Below are positions 21,836 to 58,844 of a stretch of 64,000 bases of DNA, one piece after another. Location of the stretch: sequence record OR539218.1; one strand, given 5' to 3'. Numbering within the stretch: position 1 is the first letter of the stretch; each line of letters starts with the position of its first letter. The notes under the pieces were generated by a model. That model had not been told where the DNA came from. It saw only the letters and a list, made by a program, of their open reading frames with translations, and made no database searches. Origin of the DNA: Escherichia phage vB-Eco-KMB26. Both the position numbers and the translations under genes were made by a program.

Positions 21836-22849
21836 TCATTTATAATAACTTCGGTGGTTTTCAAGATAAACCCTCTCAAGGAAGTCATCCCAAAAACCCA
21901 TGTCTACTTTTTGCTGCATACCGTTCTTAGAAGCTTCAGTAGATGCTGCTTCTACTTGATCGACCACATCTTCCAAAAACTCTTGAACCGTTTTAAATGG
22001 ATGTTTACCCAACTTCACGTCGAGAATAAATGGAGCATCTTGGAGTGGATAAACCAAGTCACCAGTTTTGTAAATTTCCAATAGTTGGAGTCCACCACGG
22101 CAAGCATGACTCAGAGCTTTCCAGTCAATACCTTCATTGGCTTCGGCCTTACGAGCACGTTCACCGTATTCAGCATCTAATTTGTTCAGTGACTGCTTAA
22201 GCTCAATAAGAGAAAGCGTTGTCTGATATTTACGACCCAACACTGTGTAGAACGTCTGTGGGCCTGTTTTCTCATGATTATGGAACACCCATTCACAGAA
22301 TTCGTTTTCTGGAAGACGATGCTTAATATCTTCAACTTTAGTACGACGCTGCTTAATAGAACCATCTTCTTGGTAATCAACCCATTGCTCAGGGATTTGA
22401 TTAACTACTTTCAATACATCACGTAATGCAGCCAAACGAGAACCCTTAACGCCGTATTTAGAAGCTTGCTTACGGACATATCCTAAATAGGATTTCATGT
22501 TAGTCGTATAAAAACGAGAACGGTTGTCTTGAATAAACTTCCACACATCAGGCAAATCAGATTTAACCACTAGTTCAGGTGGAGTGTGAAGCATATCTAA
22601 CGCTACAGTTTCACCATCTGCTGCTAATTTAAAGAAATATTTAAGACTGTATAGTTCATGGTCAATATCATCTTTAGTGTTTTTAGATGATGTGTTGTTA
22701 GTGTTTTTACTCATGTGCTCTTTAACATTTCCGATAAGAATATCACGAGCAGGAGGAACAAAGATTTCTTTAAAATCTACATCAGATTCTGGGGTAGAAG
22801 TTCCATAAAGATGACTACCAAAATAGCTTTTCATTACTGTTTTCATCAT
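21836..22849 (-). CDS. Predicted nucleotidyltransferase-fold protein
   Basis: 337 aa; N-terminal GSx10DVD motif (YFGSHLYGTSTPESDVDF) typical of pol-beta-superfamily NTases. Confidence 0.5.
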   Translation of the reverse strand: MMKTVMKSYFGSHLYGTSTPESDVDFKEIFVPPARDILIGNVKEHMSKNTNNTSSKNTKDDIDHELYSLKYFFKLAADGETVALDMLHTPPELVVKSDLPDVWKFIQDNRSRFYTTNMKSYLGYVRKQASKYGVKGSRLAALRDVLKVVNQIPEQWVDYQEDGSIKQRRTKVEDIKHRLPENEFCEWVFHNHEKTGPQTFYTVLGRKYQTTLSLIELKQSLNKLDAEYGERARKAEANEGIDWKALSHACRGGLQLLEIYKTGDLVYPLQDAPFILDVKLGKHPFKTVQEFLEDVVDQVEAASTEASKNGMQQKVDMGFWDDFLERVYLENHRSYYK

Positions 22850-23307
22850 TCAGCCTTATATTCAATAACAGGACATACTTTAGCTTTACGAGCTTTTAAA
22901 AATTCAACGATAATCGATTTCTTGGGTTGAATAGGAGGTAAACCTTTATACGCCCTATCAATATTTTCTACGTGTAAAGCATAATCCTTTTTCCATTTAT
23001 AATCTTTATATTTTTCACGCAGTTGTGCAGGAATAACAAATGAACCGATAATAAGTAAAACAAGCAAAATGGCAAGTATAAATGCTGATGGAATAAGAGT
23101 CCATAAACTACCAAAAATAAGCCATTTCTGTATGATTTCTGCGCAGATGATAGTTAGACCTACGAGTATAGTACATCCGAAAAAAGAAACGAAAAATGTA
23201 GGGATAACAATAGACCAAAAGTATGCGCACAGCGTCTTAGGTCGTTGCCATTCATCGTTAAACAATTTGAATAATTTATAGTGCCAAGAGTTTTCATTAA
23301 TAATCAT
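22846..23307 (-). CDS. Integral membrane protein
   Basis: 153 aa with about 3-4 hydrophobic helices. Confidence 0.55.
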   Translation of the reverse strand: MIINENSWHYKLFKLFNDEWQRPKTLCAYFWSIVIPTFFVSFFGCTILVGLTIICAEIIQKWLIFGSLWTLIPSAFILAILLVLLIIGSFVIPAQLREKYKDYKWKKDYALHVENIDRAYKGLPPIQPKKSIIVEFLKARKAKVCPVIEYKAE

Positions 23308-23309
23308 AA

Positions 23310-23831
23310 TTATCCTTTCATTGAAGGTGTAACAGTTGTTAAATACTTAATCATAGCTTCAGCTTCTGATTTTGATAATGAAATTTCTTCATTGTTTTGA
23401 CGAATAGAAATAAAATCCGGATGACGGTCACCACCAGCTTTTAAAACACACATATAAGTATCAGTTTCATCTTCAATATCTGAAATGATTGAAGCAGTTC
23501 CACATGAATGCGGTTTTTGATAAATCAATACAGCTTTTCTTCCGCCATTTGACTGTTCATAAACTTTTAATACATCAAACAAATCACTTCTTTTATCAAT
23601 AGCTAAAATGTTATTTTCATCTTCAATGTTAAATCCTTCGGATACTTCATAAAGTGTCACCCATAAATCGCCAATATCAATAACAGCGTTCACTTTTCCA
23701 TGACTTTCAAGAGCATGACAAATTTTCTTGATTTCGTCATAACTCATTTTAATAATATCATCTCCTTGAATAAGAAAGATGTCATTTTTAAATTCAACAC
23801 GAATTAAACCACTTCCACTTGAAATAAACAT
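23310..23831 (-). CDS. Hypothetical protein, paralog of 23838-24395
   Basis: 173 aa; C-terminus EAEAMIKYLTTVTPSMKG resembles EAIALKTYLDSVIPTMISK of the neighbour. Confidence 0.55.
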   Translation of the reverse strand: MFISSGSGLIRVEFKNDIFLIQGDDIIKMSYDEIKKICHALESHGKVNAVIDIGDLWVTLYEVSEGFNIEDENNILAIDKRSDLFDVLKVYEQSNGGRKAVLIYQKPHSCGTASIISDIEDETDTYMCVLKAGGDRHPDFISIRQNNEEISLSKSEAEAMIKYLTTVTPSMKG

Positions 23832-23837
23832 ATTTCC

Positions 23838-24395
23838 TCACTTTGAAATCATAGTTGGAATGACAGAATCGAGATAAGTCTTTAGCGCAATAGCTTCGTC
23901 TTTGGTAAATGTGACAATATACGATCGAAAATCATCAATTTGACGAATAGTTAAGACATCACCATCTTCATAGCATTTTGATACGTTTAAAACAGTTTCA
24001 TCATTCTGATTGCAAGCGTTAGTAATAATAGCATTGCAATTTTTGAGCCATTTTAAACTATGTTTTCTTTCATTAGAATAATAAAAATATTTAATCTTAT
24101 CTATAAAACTATCCCAATGGATAACTGATAAACACATTGACTCACTTTTAATATTAAATCCTGGGCATGAAGAATAAAAATGAATTTTGTGCTCATCATT
24201 GATGCTTACTATTTTATCAGTATAAGGATATTCAATTTGGGTTAAATGAATGATTTCACTAGGCGTAAAATATAGCATATCGTCTTCTTGTGTCAAACGA
24301 TACATATTATTTACTTTTTCTATAGCTAATTCACCAAAAAGCGGACTAACTTCTAATACTAATCGTTTCATATTGATTCTCTTCGACTCACCCAC
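23838..24395 (-). CDS. Hypothetical protein, paralog of 23310-23831; ORF-track start is GTG, alternative ATG at 24371
   Basis: 185-aa ORF. Confidence 0.5.
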   Translation of the reverse strand: MGESKRINMKRLVLEVSPLFGELAIEKVNNMYRLTQEDDMLYFTPSEIIHLTQIEYPYTDKIVSINDEHKIHFYSSCPGFNIKSESMCLSVIHWDSFIDKIKYFYYSNERKHSLKWLKNCNAIITNACNQNDETVLNVSKCYEDGDVLTIRQIDDFRSYIVTFTKDEAIALKTYLDSVIPTMISK

Positions 24396-24397
24396 AA

Positions 24398-24502
24398 TTA
24401 CATACTCCTTTGAATAATATCAATAATGTTGTTCACCAGATTATAAGTAAACATTGGATAATTATATTGAATCATCACATACACAACAAACAAAACTTTC
24501 AT
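24398..24502 (-). CDS. Micro-ORF (34 aa, hydrophobic) with strong AAGGAG RBS, ending 2 nt before the GTG start of the downstream gene
   Basis: Hand translation MKVLFVVYVMIQYNYPMFTYNLVNNIIDIIQRSM. Confidence 0.25.
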   Translation of the reverse strand: MKVLFVVYVMIQYNYPMFTYNLVNNIIDIIQRSM

Positions 24503-24518
24503 TCTCTTCTCCTTGGCA

Positions 24519-24552
24519 GTTGACAAGATTACTATATCATAATCTTGTCAAC
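24519..24552. repeat. Perfect 13-bp inverted repeat GTTGACAAGATTA-(8 nt)-TAATCTTGTCAAC
   Basis: Read directly; each arm contains TTGACA. Confidence 0.85.
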
Positions 24553-24562
24553 TTGTAAACCA

Positions 24563-24736
24563 TTAAATGACGTTTTCAATAAAATTCTGAAGCTTTGTGT
24601 GAGCATCAACCATGATTTTCATTTCTTCTTTGGCGAAAGCTGTACCTCTTTCCCGAGAAGAACACTCATAGTCAGAAACTGCATTAGCATATTCTTCAAT
24701 TAGTTTCATTAAAAACATCTGCTTTTCAGTTTTCAT
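24563..24736 (-). CDS. Small ORF (57 aa)
   Basis: Hand translation MKTEKQMFLMKLIEEYANAV...; below ORF-track cutoff. Confidence 0.35.
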   Translation of the reverse strand: MKTEKQMFLMKLIEEYANAVSDYECSSRERGTAFAKEEMKIMVDAHTKLQNFIENVI

Positions 24737-24920
24737 TATTCCACCTAATCATTTCAAGATATTGAACTAACTTAGCTTTGGATTTATCCAAATCCTTTTT
24801 AGCTGCTTCTATACCGTCGTATGAATATCCTTCACAATGCTCAACTGCTAATTGGTATGAATCTATTTCAATATCACGTGCTAATTTAATGATTTTTTCA
24901 AACTGTTCACGTGTTAGCAT
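24726..24920 (-). CDS. Hypothetical small protein
   Basis: 64-aa ORF. Confidence 0.5.
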   Translation of the reverse strand: MLTREQFEKIIKLARDIEIDSYQLAVEHCEGYSYDGIEAAKKDLDKSKAKLVQYLEMIRWNNEN

Positions 24921-25333: not shown

Positions 25334-25372
25334 GATAGTTGTATAGTACCACAGCTCAAACGGAAAGTAAAC
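25334..25372 (-). promoter_or_regulatory. Early promoter (-35 GTTTAC, -10 TACTAT)
   Basis: Motif gatagttgtatagtacc...gtaaac. Confidence 0.55.
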
Positions 25373-25388
25373 CGGTAAAATGAAAAAA

Positions 25389-25404
25389 GTCTCCCGAAGG
25401 AGAC
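25389..25404 (-). terminator. C(UUCG)G-type hairpin GTCTCCttcgGGAGAC
   Basis: 6-bp stem with UUCG loop downstream of the rI.-1-position gene. Confidence 0.5.
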
Positions 25405-25409
25405 TAATG

Positions 25410-32154: not shown

Positions 32155-32191
32155 TGTGAATATACTATCACAATTCTAGGAGAAAGTAAAC
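32155..32191 (-). promoter_or_regulatory. Early promoter upstream of denV (-35 GTTTAC, -10 TAGTAT)
   Basis: Minus strand GTTTACtttctcctagaattgtgaTAGTAT. Confidence 0.5.
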
Positions 32192-36186: not shown

Positions 36187-36278
36187 GTTGATAGTTGTAT
36201 AGTACCATGGAAGAACAGGGATGTAAACAGTTGTTGATAGTTGTATAGTACCATGGAAGAACAGGGATGTAAACAGTT
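36187..36278 (-). repeat. Exact tandem duplication (2 x 46 bp), each copy a complete early promoter
   Basis: gttgatagttgtatagtaccatggaagaacagggatgtaaacagtt occurs twice back-to-back (36187-36232, 36233-36278). Confidence 0.9.
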
Positions 36279-38522: not shown

Positions 38523-38921
38523 TCAGCCTTCATCAACAATAGTGTGAGTATTAGCATTTACGATTTGCCACCAATCAAAGCGATTAGAATCCATCGGTTT
38601 GTTTTCATTTTCTTTGATAATGTCACGGAGTTCATCTTCAGAGAATGCTTTAGCAATTAAATCGGTATACCCACCACGGGGATAATAATTATCACCTGCA
38701 AACAAAAGGAAATTTACCTTCCCGGAAGCAACATATGCTTCCTTAGGATACTTGTTTCCTGCGTGGTCAACCACTTCAATATAACGGTAAGGAATATCGG
38801 TTCTTTCAACCCATTGCCATGCCGCCGCAGGGGAATCGAAAGCATCTACACCTAAACGATTATCTTCATCTTTAGACGGATTATTTTCGTAATCCGCATA
38901 TACATAATATTCAACGTTCAT
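38523..38921 (-). CDS. Hypothetical acidic protein (variable ipI-type locus)
   Basis: 132-aa ORF; ATGA overlap with upstream ORF. Confidence 0.5.
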   Translation of the reverse strand: MNVEYYVYADYENNPSKDEDNRLGVDAFDSPAAAWQWVERTDIPYRYIEVVDHAGNKYPKEAYVASGKVNFLLFAGDNYYPRGGYTDLIAKAFSEDELRDIIKENENKPMDSNRFDWWQIVNANTHTIVDEG

Positions 38922-39106
38922 TATTCACCTTTAGAAATTTTATCCATAACAATAGCAATTAAACCAATTAAAAATGCTACTACAAGTGAAAAAACATTTT
39001 CTGCCGTAGTCAATAATCCGCATATAAATCCAACAAACATTGAAAAACTGAAAGCGGAAGCAGAAATTGCAATAGCAACATTTCGAATTAATTCACAACG
39101 TTTCAT
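38921..39106 (-). CDS. Small membrane protein
   Basis: 61 aa, almost entirely hydrophobic; own early promoter upstream. Confidence 0.5.
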   Translation of the reverse strand: MKRCELIRNVAIAISASAFSFSMFVGFICGLLTTAENVFSLVVAFLIGLIAIVMDKISKGE

Positions 39107-39127
39107 TTTATTCTCCTCAGTAGTAGA

Positions 39128-39164
39128 TAGGGTAATAGTATCACTACCCTATCTAAAAGTAAAC
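39128..39164 (-). promoter_or_regulatory. Early promoter (-35 GTTTAC, -10 ATACTATTAC variant)
   Basis: gatagggtaatagtatcac...gtaaac. Confidence 0.5.
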
Positions 39165-57386: not shown

Positions 57387-58844
57387 ATGATTGAATTAAA
57401 AGAGTTACCTTTTGTTGATAGCGTTCCTGACGAAGGTCAGGAACGTATTTCATGGATTAAAAATGGTGAAGAAATATTAGGAGCTAGTACTAAGTATGGA
57501 AATGATGGATCAATGAATAGACCAATTGTTTCCGTGTTTAAAAACGTCGAAGTTCTTGATGAAAATGTGGGAATTCTTAAAACTGCCATTGAAACATCAC
57601 AGAAAGATATTAAAACAATTCAAGGAGTTTTAGATGTATCAGGAGATATAGAAGCACTATCGCAGATCAGTGTTAATAAAAATGACATATCGAATTTAAA
57701 GACACTTACCAGTGAACACACTGATATATTAACTGGAACTAATAATACAGTTGACAAAATTATTGCTGATATAGGTCCATTTAATGATGAAGAAAACTCT
57801 GTTTATAGAACAATTAGAAATGATTTATTGTGGATTAAACAGGAATTAGGACAATATTCTGGCCAAGACATTAACGGTCTTCCTGTTGTTGGTAATGCTA
57901 GCACAGGAATGAAACACAGAATAATAACAAACAGTACATTATTATCTTCACAGGGCATTCGTTTAAGCGAATTAGAAAATAAATTTACTGAATCTGACGT
58001 AGGATCATTAACTGTTGAAGTTGGTAAATTACGTGATGAACTTGGTAATAAACCAGTAGATTTTGGGCCAAATATTTATAATAGATTAAACACCATAGAT
58101 GATAAACAAACTTTAATAATTTCTGATATAGCAGAAATTAAATCTTCTATTGGATACCCAGAAAATGTTTCTATAATAACAGAAATTAATAATAACAAAA
58201 GTAGCATTGAAGCTATTAATAATGAATTAAATCAGAGTGAAGGTGTTAAACAGCGCTTAACGGCTATTGAAACTTCTATAGGTTCAGATGATATTCCTTC
58301 TAGTATTAAAGGAAAAATTAAAAATCACACAACTTCTATTGAGTCTTTAAACGGAATTGTTGGTGAAAACACTTCGTCTGGTTTAAGAGCGAATGTTTCG
58401 TGGTTAAATCAAATTGTTGGAACTGACTCCAGCGGAGGACAACCGTCTCCTTCTGGATCTCTATTAAATAAAGTTTCAGTGCTTGAAGGAGAAGTTTCAG
58501 TTTTAAACAATAATGTTCAAAATATACAAGTTGAAATAGGAAATAATAGAACAGGAATTAAAGGTCAAGTTATTGAACTTACTTCACTTATAAATGGAAA
58601 TAATCCTGACGGATCAACTGTTGAAGAACGAGGATTAACTAATTCTATAAAAACGAATGAAACCAACATTGCGGCAGTCACACATGAAGTAAATACAGCT
58701 AAAGACAATATATCCTCTTTACAGAGCAGCGTTCAAGCTCTACAAGAAGCAGGTTATATTCCTGAAGCTCCAAAAGATGGCCAAGCTTACGTTCGTAAAG
58801 ACGGCGAATGGGTACTACTTTCTACCTTTTTATCACCAGCATAA
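57387..58844 (+). CDS. wac: Fibritin (whisker) Wac
   Basis: 485 aa; coiled-coil; C-terminal foldon [27 protein letters not shown]. Confidence 0.93.

Follow-up and report, generated by a model that had tools for sequence, protein, structure and literature searches.

A stem-loop around the -10 element of an early promoter ahead of the small gene mobD.2 in a T4-like phage, a probable PeSL-type cassette

Promoter/stem-loop cassettes known as PeSLs have been described in T4-type phages (Arbiol et al. 2010, PMC2839356; Comeau et al. 2014, PMC4122927). According to the passages of PMC2839356 on their layout, the stems lie "most commonly" between the -35 and -10 elements or overlap the -10, and a Shine-Dalgarno (SD) sequence and an ATG then follow. 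One PeSL stem cut lacZ read-through like a strong terminator; as presented in the part of that paper on this test, it was a single GC-rich RB49/phi1 stem, with no AT-rich T-even stem. PeSLs were also described for the PST/T4 pair, for which the sections of PMC4122927 on early promoters give the consensus TTTACW-N17-TAYWAT, and the features of T4 early promoters comprise UP, -35, TGn and -10 elements (PMC2988021). In early-gene ribosome-binding sites of T4, RegB cleaves at the consensus GG*AGRAYARAA, and exonucleases enter at the 3' ends made by its cuts (PMC3014915). Here, we describe a locus that combines an early promoter, a stem-loop and a candidate RegB site within a few dozen nucleotides.

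The locus lies in a 64,000-nt stretch (hereafter the window) of Escherichia phage vB-Eco-KMB26 (OR539218.1), a Tequatrovirus (T4-like phage), where a cassette fills the entire 60-nt gap between the homologs of the T4 genes mobD.2a and mobD.2 (Table 1). It contains a perfect inverted repeat at 24518-24553, the longest of the whole window, whose two arms of 14 bp are 100% complementary and separated by an 8-nt spacer; a preliminary description had recognized the perfect pairing and the 8-nt loop and had put the length one pair too short, at 13 bp. The raw palindrome alone is modestly unusual against chance, as 13 of 200 dinucleotide shuffles of the window held a perfect 13-bp repeat with a spacer of 3-40 nt. 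RNA structure prediction, proposed earlier as a check, gave -27 kcal/mol (z = -4.8) for the repeat, and the stability of the stem was reached in none of 300 shuffles in which the promoter elements were held fixed. With G-C at 4 of 13 pairs and the tail CUGCCAAGG, the G+C-rich stem and U-run by which an intrinsic terminator is recognized are not found here. The minus strand continues directly after the stem as CTGCCAAGG, and the earlier statements that no T-run flanks the repeat and that an intrinsic terminator is the less likely reading thus hold; a terminator scan left the stem uncalled, though it called two canonical UUCG terminators nearby (25405-25388 and 21834-21815). An Rfam scan of 24200-24800 gave no hit that approached threshold: the best scored 10-17 bits, where the gathering scores are 37-117. 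The palindrome had also been suggested as something to look for elsewhere: within the window the only exact matches were the two arms themselves, and near-matches numbered 7 against 3.6 expected, which is chance level and indicates that the repeat is not dispersed.

Table 1 Features of the mobD.2a-mobD.2-mobD.1 region and of related elements in the window
Feature	Position	Strand	Basis or remark
UUCG-tetraloop intrinsic terminator	25405-25388	-	terminator scan
Next upstream early promoter, TTTACT, N17, TACTAT	TTTACT 25371-25366; terminator and promoter span 25343..25405	-	
Upstream gene, T4 mobD.2a homolog, 57 aa	24563..24736	-	ORF list; T4, T2, PP01, RB14 annotations; phrog_2758
Stop codon TAA of mobD.2a homolog	24565-24563	-	3 nt ahead of the -35 hexamer
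-35 hexamer TTTACA (G before: GTTTACA)	24554..24559	-	promoter scan
Left (5') stem arm AGTTGACAAGATTA	24540..24553	-	within the spacer of the promoter, at roughly -29 to -16
Loop TGATATAG	24532..24539	-	TGn extended -10 with bases 1-5 of the -10 hexamer
-10 hexamer TATAGT	24531..24536	-	promoter scan
Right (3') stem arm TAATCTTGTCAACT	24518..24531	-	about -7 to +7
Predicted transcription start, G, 7 nt past the -10, within the right arm	24524	-	T4 ortholog base 57,954
Shine-Dalgarno AAGGAG	24514-24509	-	sequence
RegB-type site GGAGAAGAGAA	24512-24502	-	10/11 to GG*AGRAYARAA
Micro-ORF, T4 mobD.2 homolog, 34 aa, MKVLFVVYVMIQYNYPMFTYNLVNNIIDIIQRSM	24398..24502	-	T4 annotation; phrog_3515, E = 6.5e-22
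AGGAG in the 3' end of mobD.2	24405..24409	-	9 nt before the next GTG; RBS annotated here in U115
Next gene, T4 mobD.1 homolog, 185 aa, GTG start	23838..24395	-	ORF list; T4/U115 annotation; phrog_1502
Second cassette, before the trna.4 homolog: GTTTACT, arm TAGATAGGGTA, loop GTGATACTAT, arm TACCCTATCTA	39124..39164	-	

The promoter scan read TTTACA, 17 nt ending in TGA, and then TATAGT, with 10 of 12 positions matching the sigma-70 consensus and the TGA (TGn extended -10) directly adjoining the -10 hexamer. By our own count, A+T reaches 76% in the UP-like region formed by the 29 nt that precede the -35. TATAGT differs from TAYWAT at one position and the promoter otherwise matches the PST/T4 consensus; its -35 is invariant across all Tequatrovirus and Mosigvirus versions compared. 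TTTACA-17-TATAGT is one of 15 sites of such form in the window, all of them on the minus strand, and we set aside a plus-strand promoter-like match, TTGGCA-16-TATCAT at 24513-24540, given that no plus-strand gene accompanies it and none of the 15 T4-type promoters has that orientation. The T4 ortholog differs from the window by one loop base between the -35 and the ATG. Converted to T4, the predicted +1 falls on coordinate 57,954, equal to the number in the name of the early promoter Pe57954 (PMC6024815), whose mapping was done in T4 and not in vB-Eco-KMB26; a separate Pe57.9 is named in the same paper. The T4 records NC_000866 and AF158101 carry CDS features only, with no promoter or terminator annotation, and our literature search found no published genome-wide T4 5'/3' end maps (cappable-seq, Term-seq, dRNA-seq). 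Judged from the letters, the palindrome overlaps a predicted T4-type early promoter, with the -10 in its loop and the predicted start in its right arm, and transcripts made from this promoter would therefore lack the full stem. The early promoter had gone unnoticed in the preliminary description.

The strong evidence beyond chance is comparative, in that the pairing is preserved in relatives through compensatory change. The 14 versions of the stem comprise 168 pairs, of which 155 are of Watson-Crick type, 11 form G.U in the mRNA-sense orientation and 2 do not match; variation affects 7 of the 12 pairs. Among the 12 versions of common register, 94.6% of the cells are paired as against 23-62% in slid registers, and 5 pairs have changed on both sides, which was matched by none of 500 shuffles. 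One pair runs through the series A-U (window, T4), G.U (T2, AR1, RB14) and G-C (U115, e11/2). In Gelderlandvirus and Winklervirus the same -10 is flanked by arms of unrelated sequence, in a register shifted by 1-2 nt, and in the four genera the TGn/-10 element invariably forms the loop. A search of IMG/VR anchored on MobD.1 gave close relatives only; the useful diversity came from MobD.2 and promoter/SD-pattern anchors.

The substitutions also bear on the strand on which pairing matters. Transitions left 7 G.U against 1 C.A in the sense orientation (binomial 0.035, an asymmetry of about 8 events among related sequences), and sense folded better than antisense in 16 of 18 variants. In the commonest Tequatrovirus form (T2, AR1, RB14) the fold reached -19.0 kcal/mol in sense and -7.6 in antisense, and this form contains two G.T/A.C DNA mismatches in 13 bp with an intact sense-RNA stem. 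The stem is real and under selection for pairing on the mRNA-sense strand. Because the commonest form is an imperfect DNA palindrome yet an intact RNA stem, the comparison argues for an RNA-level role on transcripts arriving from upstream and disfavours a protein operator, although single-stranded non-template DNA would leave the same signature as RNA. Of the two functions offered in the preliminary description, operator or RNA processing site, it is thus the RNA-level one that fares better; arms differ between genera while pairing is kept. The stem, moreover, travels with the promoter and not with mobD.2: in Karamvirus and Klebsiella phages mobD.2 overlaps the upstream gene and has neither promoter nor stem, and in phage ERS-1 promoter and stem stand ahead of a different gene. 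Mosigvirus homology starts exactly at the -35.

Downstream of the stem, the arrangement of AAGGAG and a 34-codon minus-strand ORF (ATG 24502-24500, TAA 24400-24398) that ends 2 nt before a GTG (24395-24393) opening a 185-aa ORF is as first described, and U115 is annotated likewise. The resemblance to a leader peptide that had been drawn from it was not borne out. The micro-ORF has tblastn matches in 840 phage records and belongs to phrog_3515, its substitutions fall mostly at codon positions 1 and 3, the structure predicted for its region is unremarkable (z = 0.15), and in some genera it occurs without promoter or stem; by these criteria it is the conserved protein gene mobD.2. The RegB-type GGAG lies 6 nt downstream of the stem, with an unpaired probability of about 0.55. 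At the mobD.2/mobD.1 junction T4 has a TAATG overlap and the window a 2-nt gap with AGGAG within the 3' end of mobD.2, and translational coupling of the two genes is plausible. The neighbouring genes are assigned to PHROGs whose function is unknown, and a literature search for "mobD.2" found no paper.

Published T4 data provide a view of RNA abundance across this junction. In motA-am compared with wild type, mobD.5 to mobD.2a were up 3.8-4.8-fold, mobD.2 1.0-fold, and mobD.1 to nrdC.11 2.2-2.3-fold (PMC6024815 Table S1), and of all segments of the region mobD.2 has the scarcest RNA in the data of that study. The response thus steps at the mobD.2a|mobD.2 junction, as seen at one time point in per-gene counts of very short genes. 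This step is consistent with the stem acting as a terminator or attenuator; it could equally be explained by RegB-triggered decay of mobD.2 RNA or by a promoter inside mobD.2, the stem being uninvolved.

Similar arrangements recur in the window. At 5 of the 15 early promoters, no more than 4 of 300 shuffles equalled the stem enclosing the -10, and at 4 further ones 10-17 of 300 did, which is marginal; no such stem accompanies the two promoters that have a UUCG terminator of their own upstream. Several of the -10-enclosing cassettes have arms in common, and the one before the trna.4 homolog is a homology breakpoint, located exactly at an IP locus. Upstream of the mobD.2 cassette, the next early promoter (about 25371) is the likely source of transcripts reading into the stem.

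We consider it fairly probable that the region is a composite PeSL-type promoter/stem-loop cassette, in which the stem marks a boundary in read-through RNA and mobD.2 is a protein gene. The data show the anatomy of the promoter with its coordinate match to Pe57954, the selection for sense-strand pairing, the conservation of the MobD.2 protein and the RNA boundary in T4; we infer the manner of boundary formation (termination or exonuclease barrier), RegB cleavage and translational coupling. Host sigma-70 RNA polymerase would read GTTTACA-17-TATAGT, start at about 24524 and drive mobD.2, mobD.1 and the genes beyond, the 13-14 bp stem being written into those parts of the promoter that may vary freely, namely the spacer and the first transcribed bases. 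Both arms would then be present only in RNA from the upstream promoter, and in such read-through RNA the stem would most likely form the 3' boundary of the mobD.5-mobD.2a message, through transcription attenuation, through a block of 3' exonucleases after a RegB-type GGAG cut, or both. mobD.2 has a strong RegB-type ribosome-binding site and is probably translationally coupled to mobD.1.

Several other explanations were weighed against this cassette reading. One is another role in RNA stability or processing, such as a 5' hairpin that protects the mobD.2-mobD.1 RNA once it has been cleaved upstream, or recognition by RegB/S1, RNase III or RNase E. Selection on sense RNA is equally compatible with it. 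A stem of 10-14 bp is short as a substrate for RNase III, and mobD.2 RNA, the scarcest of the region in T4, is not stabilized. A RegB-type site follows the stem and structure in the vicinity affects RegB, whereas RegB SELEX revealed no structural requirement other than GGAG (both PMC3014915); overall, we regard such a role as rather unlikely. A DNA-level element, be it a recombination target, a cruciform or an operator for a dimeric protein that may shut off the early promoter, is also unlikely in our estimate. The repeat is a perfect DNA palindrome in the window and in T4 and overlaps the promoter core as operators do, the shut-off of T4 early promoters is incompletely understood (PMC3014915), and the PeSL authors, in the relevant passages of PMC2839356, speculate on a target for recombination proteins and map crossovers inside PeSLs; the Mosigvirus homology that begins at the -35 and the ERS-1 cassette before another gene would fit such exchange. 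Against this, arm sequence varies between genera while pairing is conserved, the arms of other early promoters are unrelated and so offer no common recognition sequence, and the poor antisense stem of the commonest form would weaken a cruciform.

A translational switch of the T4 e/soc/49/I-TevI type, in which the read-through fold hides the mobD.2 ribosome-binding site and only RNA from the internal promoter is translated, would share its architecture with the cassette, with a promoter in the DNA of the 5' arm and a start within the stem (PMC3014915). At three other early promoters (32190, 29577 and 19862) the right arm includes GGAG, and here the extended fold stops at CCA, directly before AGGAG. 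In all four genera, however, the stem includes neither SD nor AUG, both isoforms have the same computed unpaired probabilities (in the window 0.57 vs 0.53 for the SD and 0.42 vs 0.50 for the AUG), and the direction of the accessibility change is inconsistent across genera. SD masking was ruled out by this accessibility calculation in four genera, and we hold the switch to be improbable at this locus. Attenuation by a leader peptide, with translation of the micro-ORF controlling mobD.1 via alternative RNA structures, is very improbable: a short ORF with a strong ribosome-binding site does stand just before another gene with a hairpin nearby, but that hairpin is upstream of the ORF and not between it and mobD.1, shuffled sequences fold as well as the ORF region does, and the peptide family is conserved across genera, with no hairpin in Karamvirus and the Klebsiella phages. 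That a functionless palindrome arose by chance in the promoter spacer finds some footing in the frequency of perfect 13-bp repeats in window shuffles; it can be practically dismissed in view of the 5-7 pairs that show compensatory change, of the independent stems that four genera possess and of the stability that no shuffle with fixed promoter elements attained.

Beyond this locus, it is a tentative and rather doubtful extension that the -10-enclosing stems of T-even phages are a general RNA-level device separating two RNA isoforms, selected on sense RNA and combined with a RegB-type GGAG into one unit. If this were so, RNA coming from upstream would gain a stem that serves as its 3' boundary or as a barrier to exonucleases and that in some cassettes also covers the SD/RegB site, while RNA from the embedded promoter would start in the right arm and stay unstructured; intermediates with G.U only would reflect selection on sense RNA rather than a DNA recombination site, and RegB would inactivate the downstream small gene and spare the upstream message. 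The addition to what is known of T4 is modest. The comparative evidence for sense-strand selection favours a transcript-boundary role of PeSLs over purely DNA-level recombination, each stem occupies only the sequence-free parts of its promoter, so that two RNA isoforms of different structure result, and strong RegB-type sites after two of the stems suggest a link to RegB-driven differential decay. For annotation, a striking palindrome that adjoins a micro-ORF in a T4-like phage is best examined first as an early-promoter/stem-loop cassette before a real small gene, rather than as an operator or leader peptide. Intercistronic hairpins that stabilize 3' ends are also familiar from polycistronic mRNAs, for example the REP stems in malEFG. 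By analogy with these, a stem after the upstream stop codon could stop 3' exonucleases and create differential stability within the operon; the stem does not belong to the repeated REP sequences, and the analogy is one of mechanism only.

The organization described here resembles several further systems of T4-type phages in part. With the T4 genes e, soc, 49 and I-TevI (PMC3014915) it shares RNA from the promoter that would lack the stem and read-through RNA that would contain it; those genes have late promoters and a sequestered SD or AUG, in contrast to the early promoter of mobD.2 and its SD and AUG, which the stem leaves out and whose accessibility is equal in both isoforms. Like RegB target sites (PMC3014915), the candidate site has GGAG in an early gene's translation-initiation region, located between genes, and an A-rich tract after it, and it departs from them in having G at the Y position. 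The repeats of the T-even internal-protein locus (Repoila et al. 1994, as summarized in the corresponding passage of PMC2839356) combine T4 early promoters with weaker, AT-rich stem-loops of variable size, whereas the present element is at the mobD locus. The closest counterpart are the PeSLs themselves. In the descriptive sections of both papers (PMC2839356, PMC4122927), a PeSL begins with a strong early promoter, continues with a stem-loop and ends in the SD and ATG of a small gene whose function is unknown. PeSLs lie between genes of hyperplastic regions, are present in many copies per genome and mark breakpoints of homology between phages; overlap of the stem with the -10 is among the commonest published positions, and G-T stem pairs are noted. 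The stem here differs in being AT-rich and of unique sequence, the RB49/phi1 type being GGGG...CCCC, and a figure legend for PST (PMC4122927) puts the stems just upstream of the promoter and not around the -10. A stable stem overlapping the -10, an SD and ATG downstream, an intergenic place between small genes, repetition in the genome and association with junctions where related phages differ by insertion, deletion or replacement are all found in the window, and by this analogy the element fits the published PeSL class and would be of a known kind, ordinary for this phage group.

The inverted repeat between the mobD.2a and mobD.2 homologs lies inside an early promoter, TTTACA-17(TGA)-TATAGT, which the preliminary description had overlooked. 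Sites of the form TTTAC[AT]-N17(..TGn)-TAnnnT occur 15 times in the window, every one on the minus strand, and at the sequence level this form is the published PST/T4 early-promoter consensus TTTACW-N17-TAYWAT (PMC4122927); T4 early promoters have been described as being of the UP/-35/TGn/-10 type (PMC2988021). From the -35 element to the ATG, T4 and the window differ in a single loop base, and by coordinate conversion the G located 7 nt past the -10 element is T4 coordinate 57,954; an early promoter named 'Pe57954' has been listed in T4 (PMC6024815). The predicted start lies inside the right arm, so RNA initiated here cannot form the stem and only read-through RNA from upstream can, likely originating from the early promoter at 25371, after the UUCG terminator past rI.-1.

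Features of the mobD.2 region and of a second cassette (promoter plus -10-enclosing stem) in the window
Feature	Position	Strand	Basis or remark
Membrane-protein ORF	22846-23307	-	phrog_944; at mobD position
mobD.1 paralog, 173 aa	23310-23831	-	phrog_1502, family shared with 23838-24395; at mobD position
Next ORF, 185 aa	GTG at 24395	-	sequence, ORF list
Micro-ORF, 34 codons	ATG 24502, TAA 24400-24398	-	sequence, ORF list
Shine-Dalgarno AAGGAG	24514-24509	-	sequence
Inverted-repeat arms, 14 nt each	24518-24531 and 24540-24553	-	100% complementary, 8 nt apart
-10 TATAGT	24536-24531	-	promoter scan
17-nt spacer ending in TGA	between -35 and -10	-	promoter scan
-35 TTTACA	24559-24554	-	promoter scan
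Left arm	about -29 to -16	-	in promoter spacer
Loop	between arms	-	TGn and most of -10
Right arm	about -7 to +7	-	holds predicted start 24524
trna.4 homolog, 61 aa, hydrophobic	38921-39106	-	phrog_1692; downstream of 39163 cassette
Second cassette	39124-39164 (-35 start 39163)	-	GTTTACT, 11-bp stem TAGATAGGGTA / TACCCTATCTA enclosing GTGATACTAT

Two further promoter observations were made. Inside the coding sequence of the mobD.1 homolog (24269-24296, minus strand), TTGACA-16-TATATT, with TG, fits the sigma-70 consensus at 11/12 positions, better than any other site of the region; it could be an internal promoter or a chance match. Identical early-promoter sequences (TTTACATCCCTGTTCTTCCATGGTACTAT) at 36227 and 36273 (minus strand), 46 nt apart, form a tandem duplication.

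A 1.4-kb query around the palindrome matched 499 phage records in a sequence search, and the top matches (Yersinia phage fPS-65, vB_YepM_ZN18 and Escherichia phage HP3, 99.5% identity) are all Tequatrovirus. The minus-strand genes follow the T4 order tk, rI.1, rI, rI.-1, mobD.5, mobD.4, mobD.3, mobD.2a, mobD.2, mobD.1. The T4 homing-endonuclease gene mobD is missing, and 22846-23831 (minus strand) holds two other ORFs instead. T4 mobD.2a (38 aa; T4 58049-58165) is a frameshift-truncated version of a 57-aa ORF (window 24563-24736) found in full in the window, T2, PP01 and RB14, and the annotated 116-nt 'intergenic gap' before T4 mobD.2 is its leftover.

The AAGGAG-led 34-codon ORF and the GTG gene 2 nt beyond it are as first noted, and the U115 annotation agrees; the proposed leader peptide, however, is a known conserved gene. 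The ORF matches phrog_3515 (E = 6.5e-22), and its T4 counterpart, mobD.2, is likewise 105 nt long and directly upstream of mobD.1. By tblastn, homologs were detected in 840 records of Escherichia, Shigella, Yersinia, Salmonella, Klebsiella, Enterobacter and Serratia phages; three genera share an invariant or near-invariant motif, QYN(Y/H)P(M/L)FTYN(L/M)VN, and differences from Mosigvirus number 11, 3 and 11 at codon positions 1, 2 and 3, with conservative replacements. The homolog of Karamvirus-type and Klebsiella phages shares a TAATG or ATGA overlap with the gene upstream, without promoter or stem ahead, and no unusual RNA structure was found over the ORF region (z = 0.15). The family match, wide conservation, occurrence without the stem and plain fold therefore show that it is not a leader peptide. 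Translational coupling of mobD.2 to mobD.1 is plausible from the layout of the junction, a TAATG overlap in T4 and here a 2-nt gap with AGGAG within the mobD.2 end.

On the minus strand the palindrome reads AGTTGACAAGATTA-TGATATAG-TAATCTTGTCAACT, then GCCAAGGAGAAGAGAATG. It is perfect, as reported, at 14 bp one base longer than the 13 given, and no T-run follows it; the terminator scan made no call here and picked up two UUCG-tetraloop terminators of canonical type in the vicinity (25405-25388 and 21834-21815). The palindrome by itself is only modestly unusual (a perfect 13-bp inverted repeat was present in 13/200 dinucleotide shuffles of the window), and its region folds as RNA at -27 kcal/mol (z = -4.8).

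Stem versions were drawn from annotated phages, IMG/VR and metagenomes with a search pattern anchored on the -35, -10 and SD/ATG only, so that intact stems were not favoured. Among 12 distinct same-register Tequatrovirus and Mosigvirus versions, 94.6% of cells were paired versus 23-62% with the 3′ partner slid, five pairs were altered on both sides, and 0/500 shuffles equalled the observed pairing or covariation. Extending to 14 versions and 12 shared pairs gave 155 Watson-Crick cells, 11 G.U cells and 2 mismatches, with seven pairs variable. One pair shows a full series of A-U (window, T4), G.U (T2, AR1, RB14, many others) and G-C (U115, e11/2, WL-3), and is G-C, G.U or A-U in Mosigvirus; ERS-1 adds two more double changes, T-A to C-G. 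The stem is retained beyond simple descent, because Gelderlandvirus (ATGATGAGATA / TATCTCATCAT) and Winklervirus CHI14 (GAGAGGGCAT / ATGCCCTCTC) place unrelated arms around the same TGn/-10, in a register shifted by 1-2 nt. A metagenome contig (OIZW01001908.1, 6915-6978) carried an unrelated T4-type early promoter, a chance match to the pattern, with a short 5′-UTR hairpin (TTCCGTAGCGGAA) downstream of the start and not around the -10.

These comparisons show that selection maintains the stem, and does so on the sense strand. Wobbles in mRNA sense comprised 7 G.U transitions versus 1 sense C.A (binomial 0.035; few events, related sequences), the sense fold was better than the antisense one in 16/18 variants, and the commonest Tequatrovirus form folds at -19.0 kcal/mol in sense versus -7.6 in antisense. 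Thus the perfect DNA palindrome, which had suggested a protein-binding operator, is a minority state and the sense-strand stem is what is conserved, which argues for an RNA role and against a DNA operator or cruciform. Of the original choice of operator or RNA processing site over terminator, the absence of a canonical terminator and a likely RNA-level role survive; the protein operator is unlikely. The signature would look no different if single-stranded non-template DNA, and not RNA, were what folds.

A function for the RNA stem is suggested by RNA-seq of T4 at 5 min (PMC6024815 Table S1); the counts are per gene, the genes are very short, and the phage is T4, not that of the window. Relative to wild type, RNA in motA-am rose 3.8-4.8-fold for mobD.5, mobD.4, mobD.3 and mobD.2a, 1.0-fold for mobD.2, and 2.2-2.3-fold for mobD.1, mobD and nrdC.11; upon dksA deletion the upstream genes changed 2.0-2.5-fold, mobD.2 1.1-fold (not significant) and the downstream genes 2.9-3.1-fold. 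The step falls exactly at the mobD.2a/mobD.2 junction, and therefore upstream RNA is not carried into mobD.2 as stable RNA. Across all six conditions T4 mobD.2 RNA is steady at ~1.3-1.8 reads per nt, whereas both its flanks vary 2-5-fold (same table). Six nt past the stem, GGAGAAGAGAA matches 10/11 positions of the RegB consensus GG*AGRAYARAA (PMC3014915); RegB cleavage is described as providing 3′ entry points to exonucleases and as triggering 5′-to-3′ decay over ~200 nt downstream (PMC3014915). A cut at the GGAG would explain the low, flat mobD.2 signal, and also why a stem just upstream would be used as a barrier. The RNA-seq step and the RegB-type site favour a transcript-boundary role for this stem, which has no U-run after it; the boundary would be made by attenuation, by cut and barrier, or by both.

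The T4 model of a promoter inside an inhibitory hairpin, known from genes e, soc, 49 and I-TevI (PMC3014915), does not fit mobD.2: both the SD and the AUG fall outside the stem, with equal computed accessibility in read-through and promoter-initiated RNA in all four genera. Visual inspection also picked out a promoter-like TTGTTG-17-TATAAT site inside mobD.2 (about 24487-24459); it might correspond to 'Pe57.9', a separate entry in PMC6024815, and might feed mobD.1.

The stem belongs to the promoter cassette: it is missing where mobD.2 lacks its own promoter, and Tequatrovirus-Mosigvirus homology begins exactly at the -35. ERS-1 (PP337211.1, 14889-15227) is an example of a cassette moving among gene contexts, with promoter and stem (CCGACAAGATTA / TAGTCTTGTCGG) ahead of an unrelated ORF (MELVKVVFMGW...). 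Upstream of the trna.4 homolog of Shigella phage ESh27 (Mosigvirus), the -10 and right arm (TGTTATAGTAGTCCTATCAAAACAA) are those of the Mosigvirus mobD.2 cassette and the left side is different, which suggests recombination between cassettes at separate loci.

Keeping the -35, TGn and -10 fixed, we shuffled the spacer and first transcribed bases 300 times per promoter. The -10-enclosing stem was equalled in at most 4/300 shuffles at five promoters (24559, 29577, 32190, 39163 and 19862) and in 10-17/300 at four more; this test found no such stem at 25371 and 21784, the two promoters that each have a UUCG terminator of their own upstream. At 39163 the stem is followed by GGAGAATAAAA, 11/11 for the RegB consensus, and has two compensatory pairs in Gaprivervirus and a re-registered form in RB55; this cassette adjoins variable internal-protein genes, and homology is lost right at the promoter in many relatives. 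The stems at 32190, 29577 and 19862 (minus strand, -35 starts; 0-4/300 shuffles equally stable) reach over a GGAG/GAGGA ribosome-binding site in a CTCC...GGAG arrangement. There, SD and RegB site would be hidden in read-through RNA and exposed in promoter-initiated RNA, so that early promoters would here have a counterpart of the T4 e/soc/49 arrangement. A tentative idea, which we consider rather doubtful, is that -10-enclosing stems and RegB-type sites are together a general RNA-isoform device on which selection acts at the RNA level.

The mobD.2 element is of the published promoter-early stem-loop (PeSL) kind, an already known class described in a well-studied phage group. PeSLs are small cassettes that combine a strong early promoter with a stem-loop, with the next gene's SD and ATG at the end, and cluster in hyperplastic regions; their stems lie 'most commonly' between -35 and -10 or over the -10 box, with G-T pairs marked, and one cut lacZ read-through as far as a strong terminator does (PMC2839356). 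The authors proposed a terminator or attenuator of upstream transcription and modular shuffling by recombination (PMC2839356). A later description covers PeSLs of the PST/T4 pair, whose stems are AT-rich and vary in sequence (PMC4122927). PMC2839356 credits like elements at T-even internal-protein loci to Repoila et al. 1994, and the 39163 cassette sits at such a locus.
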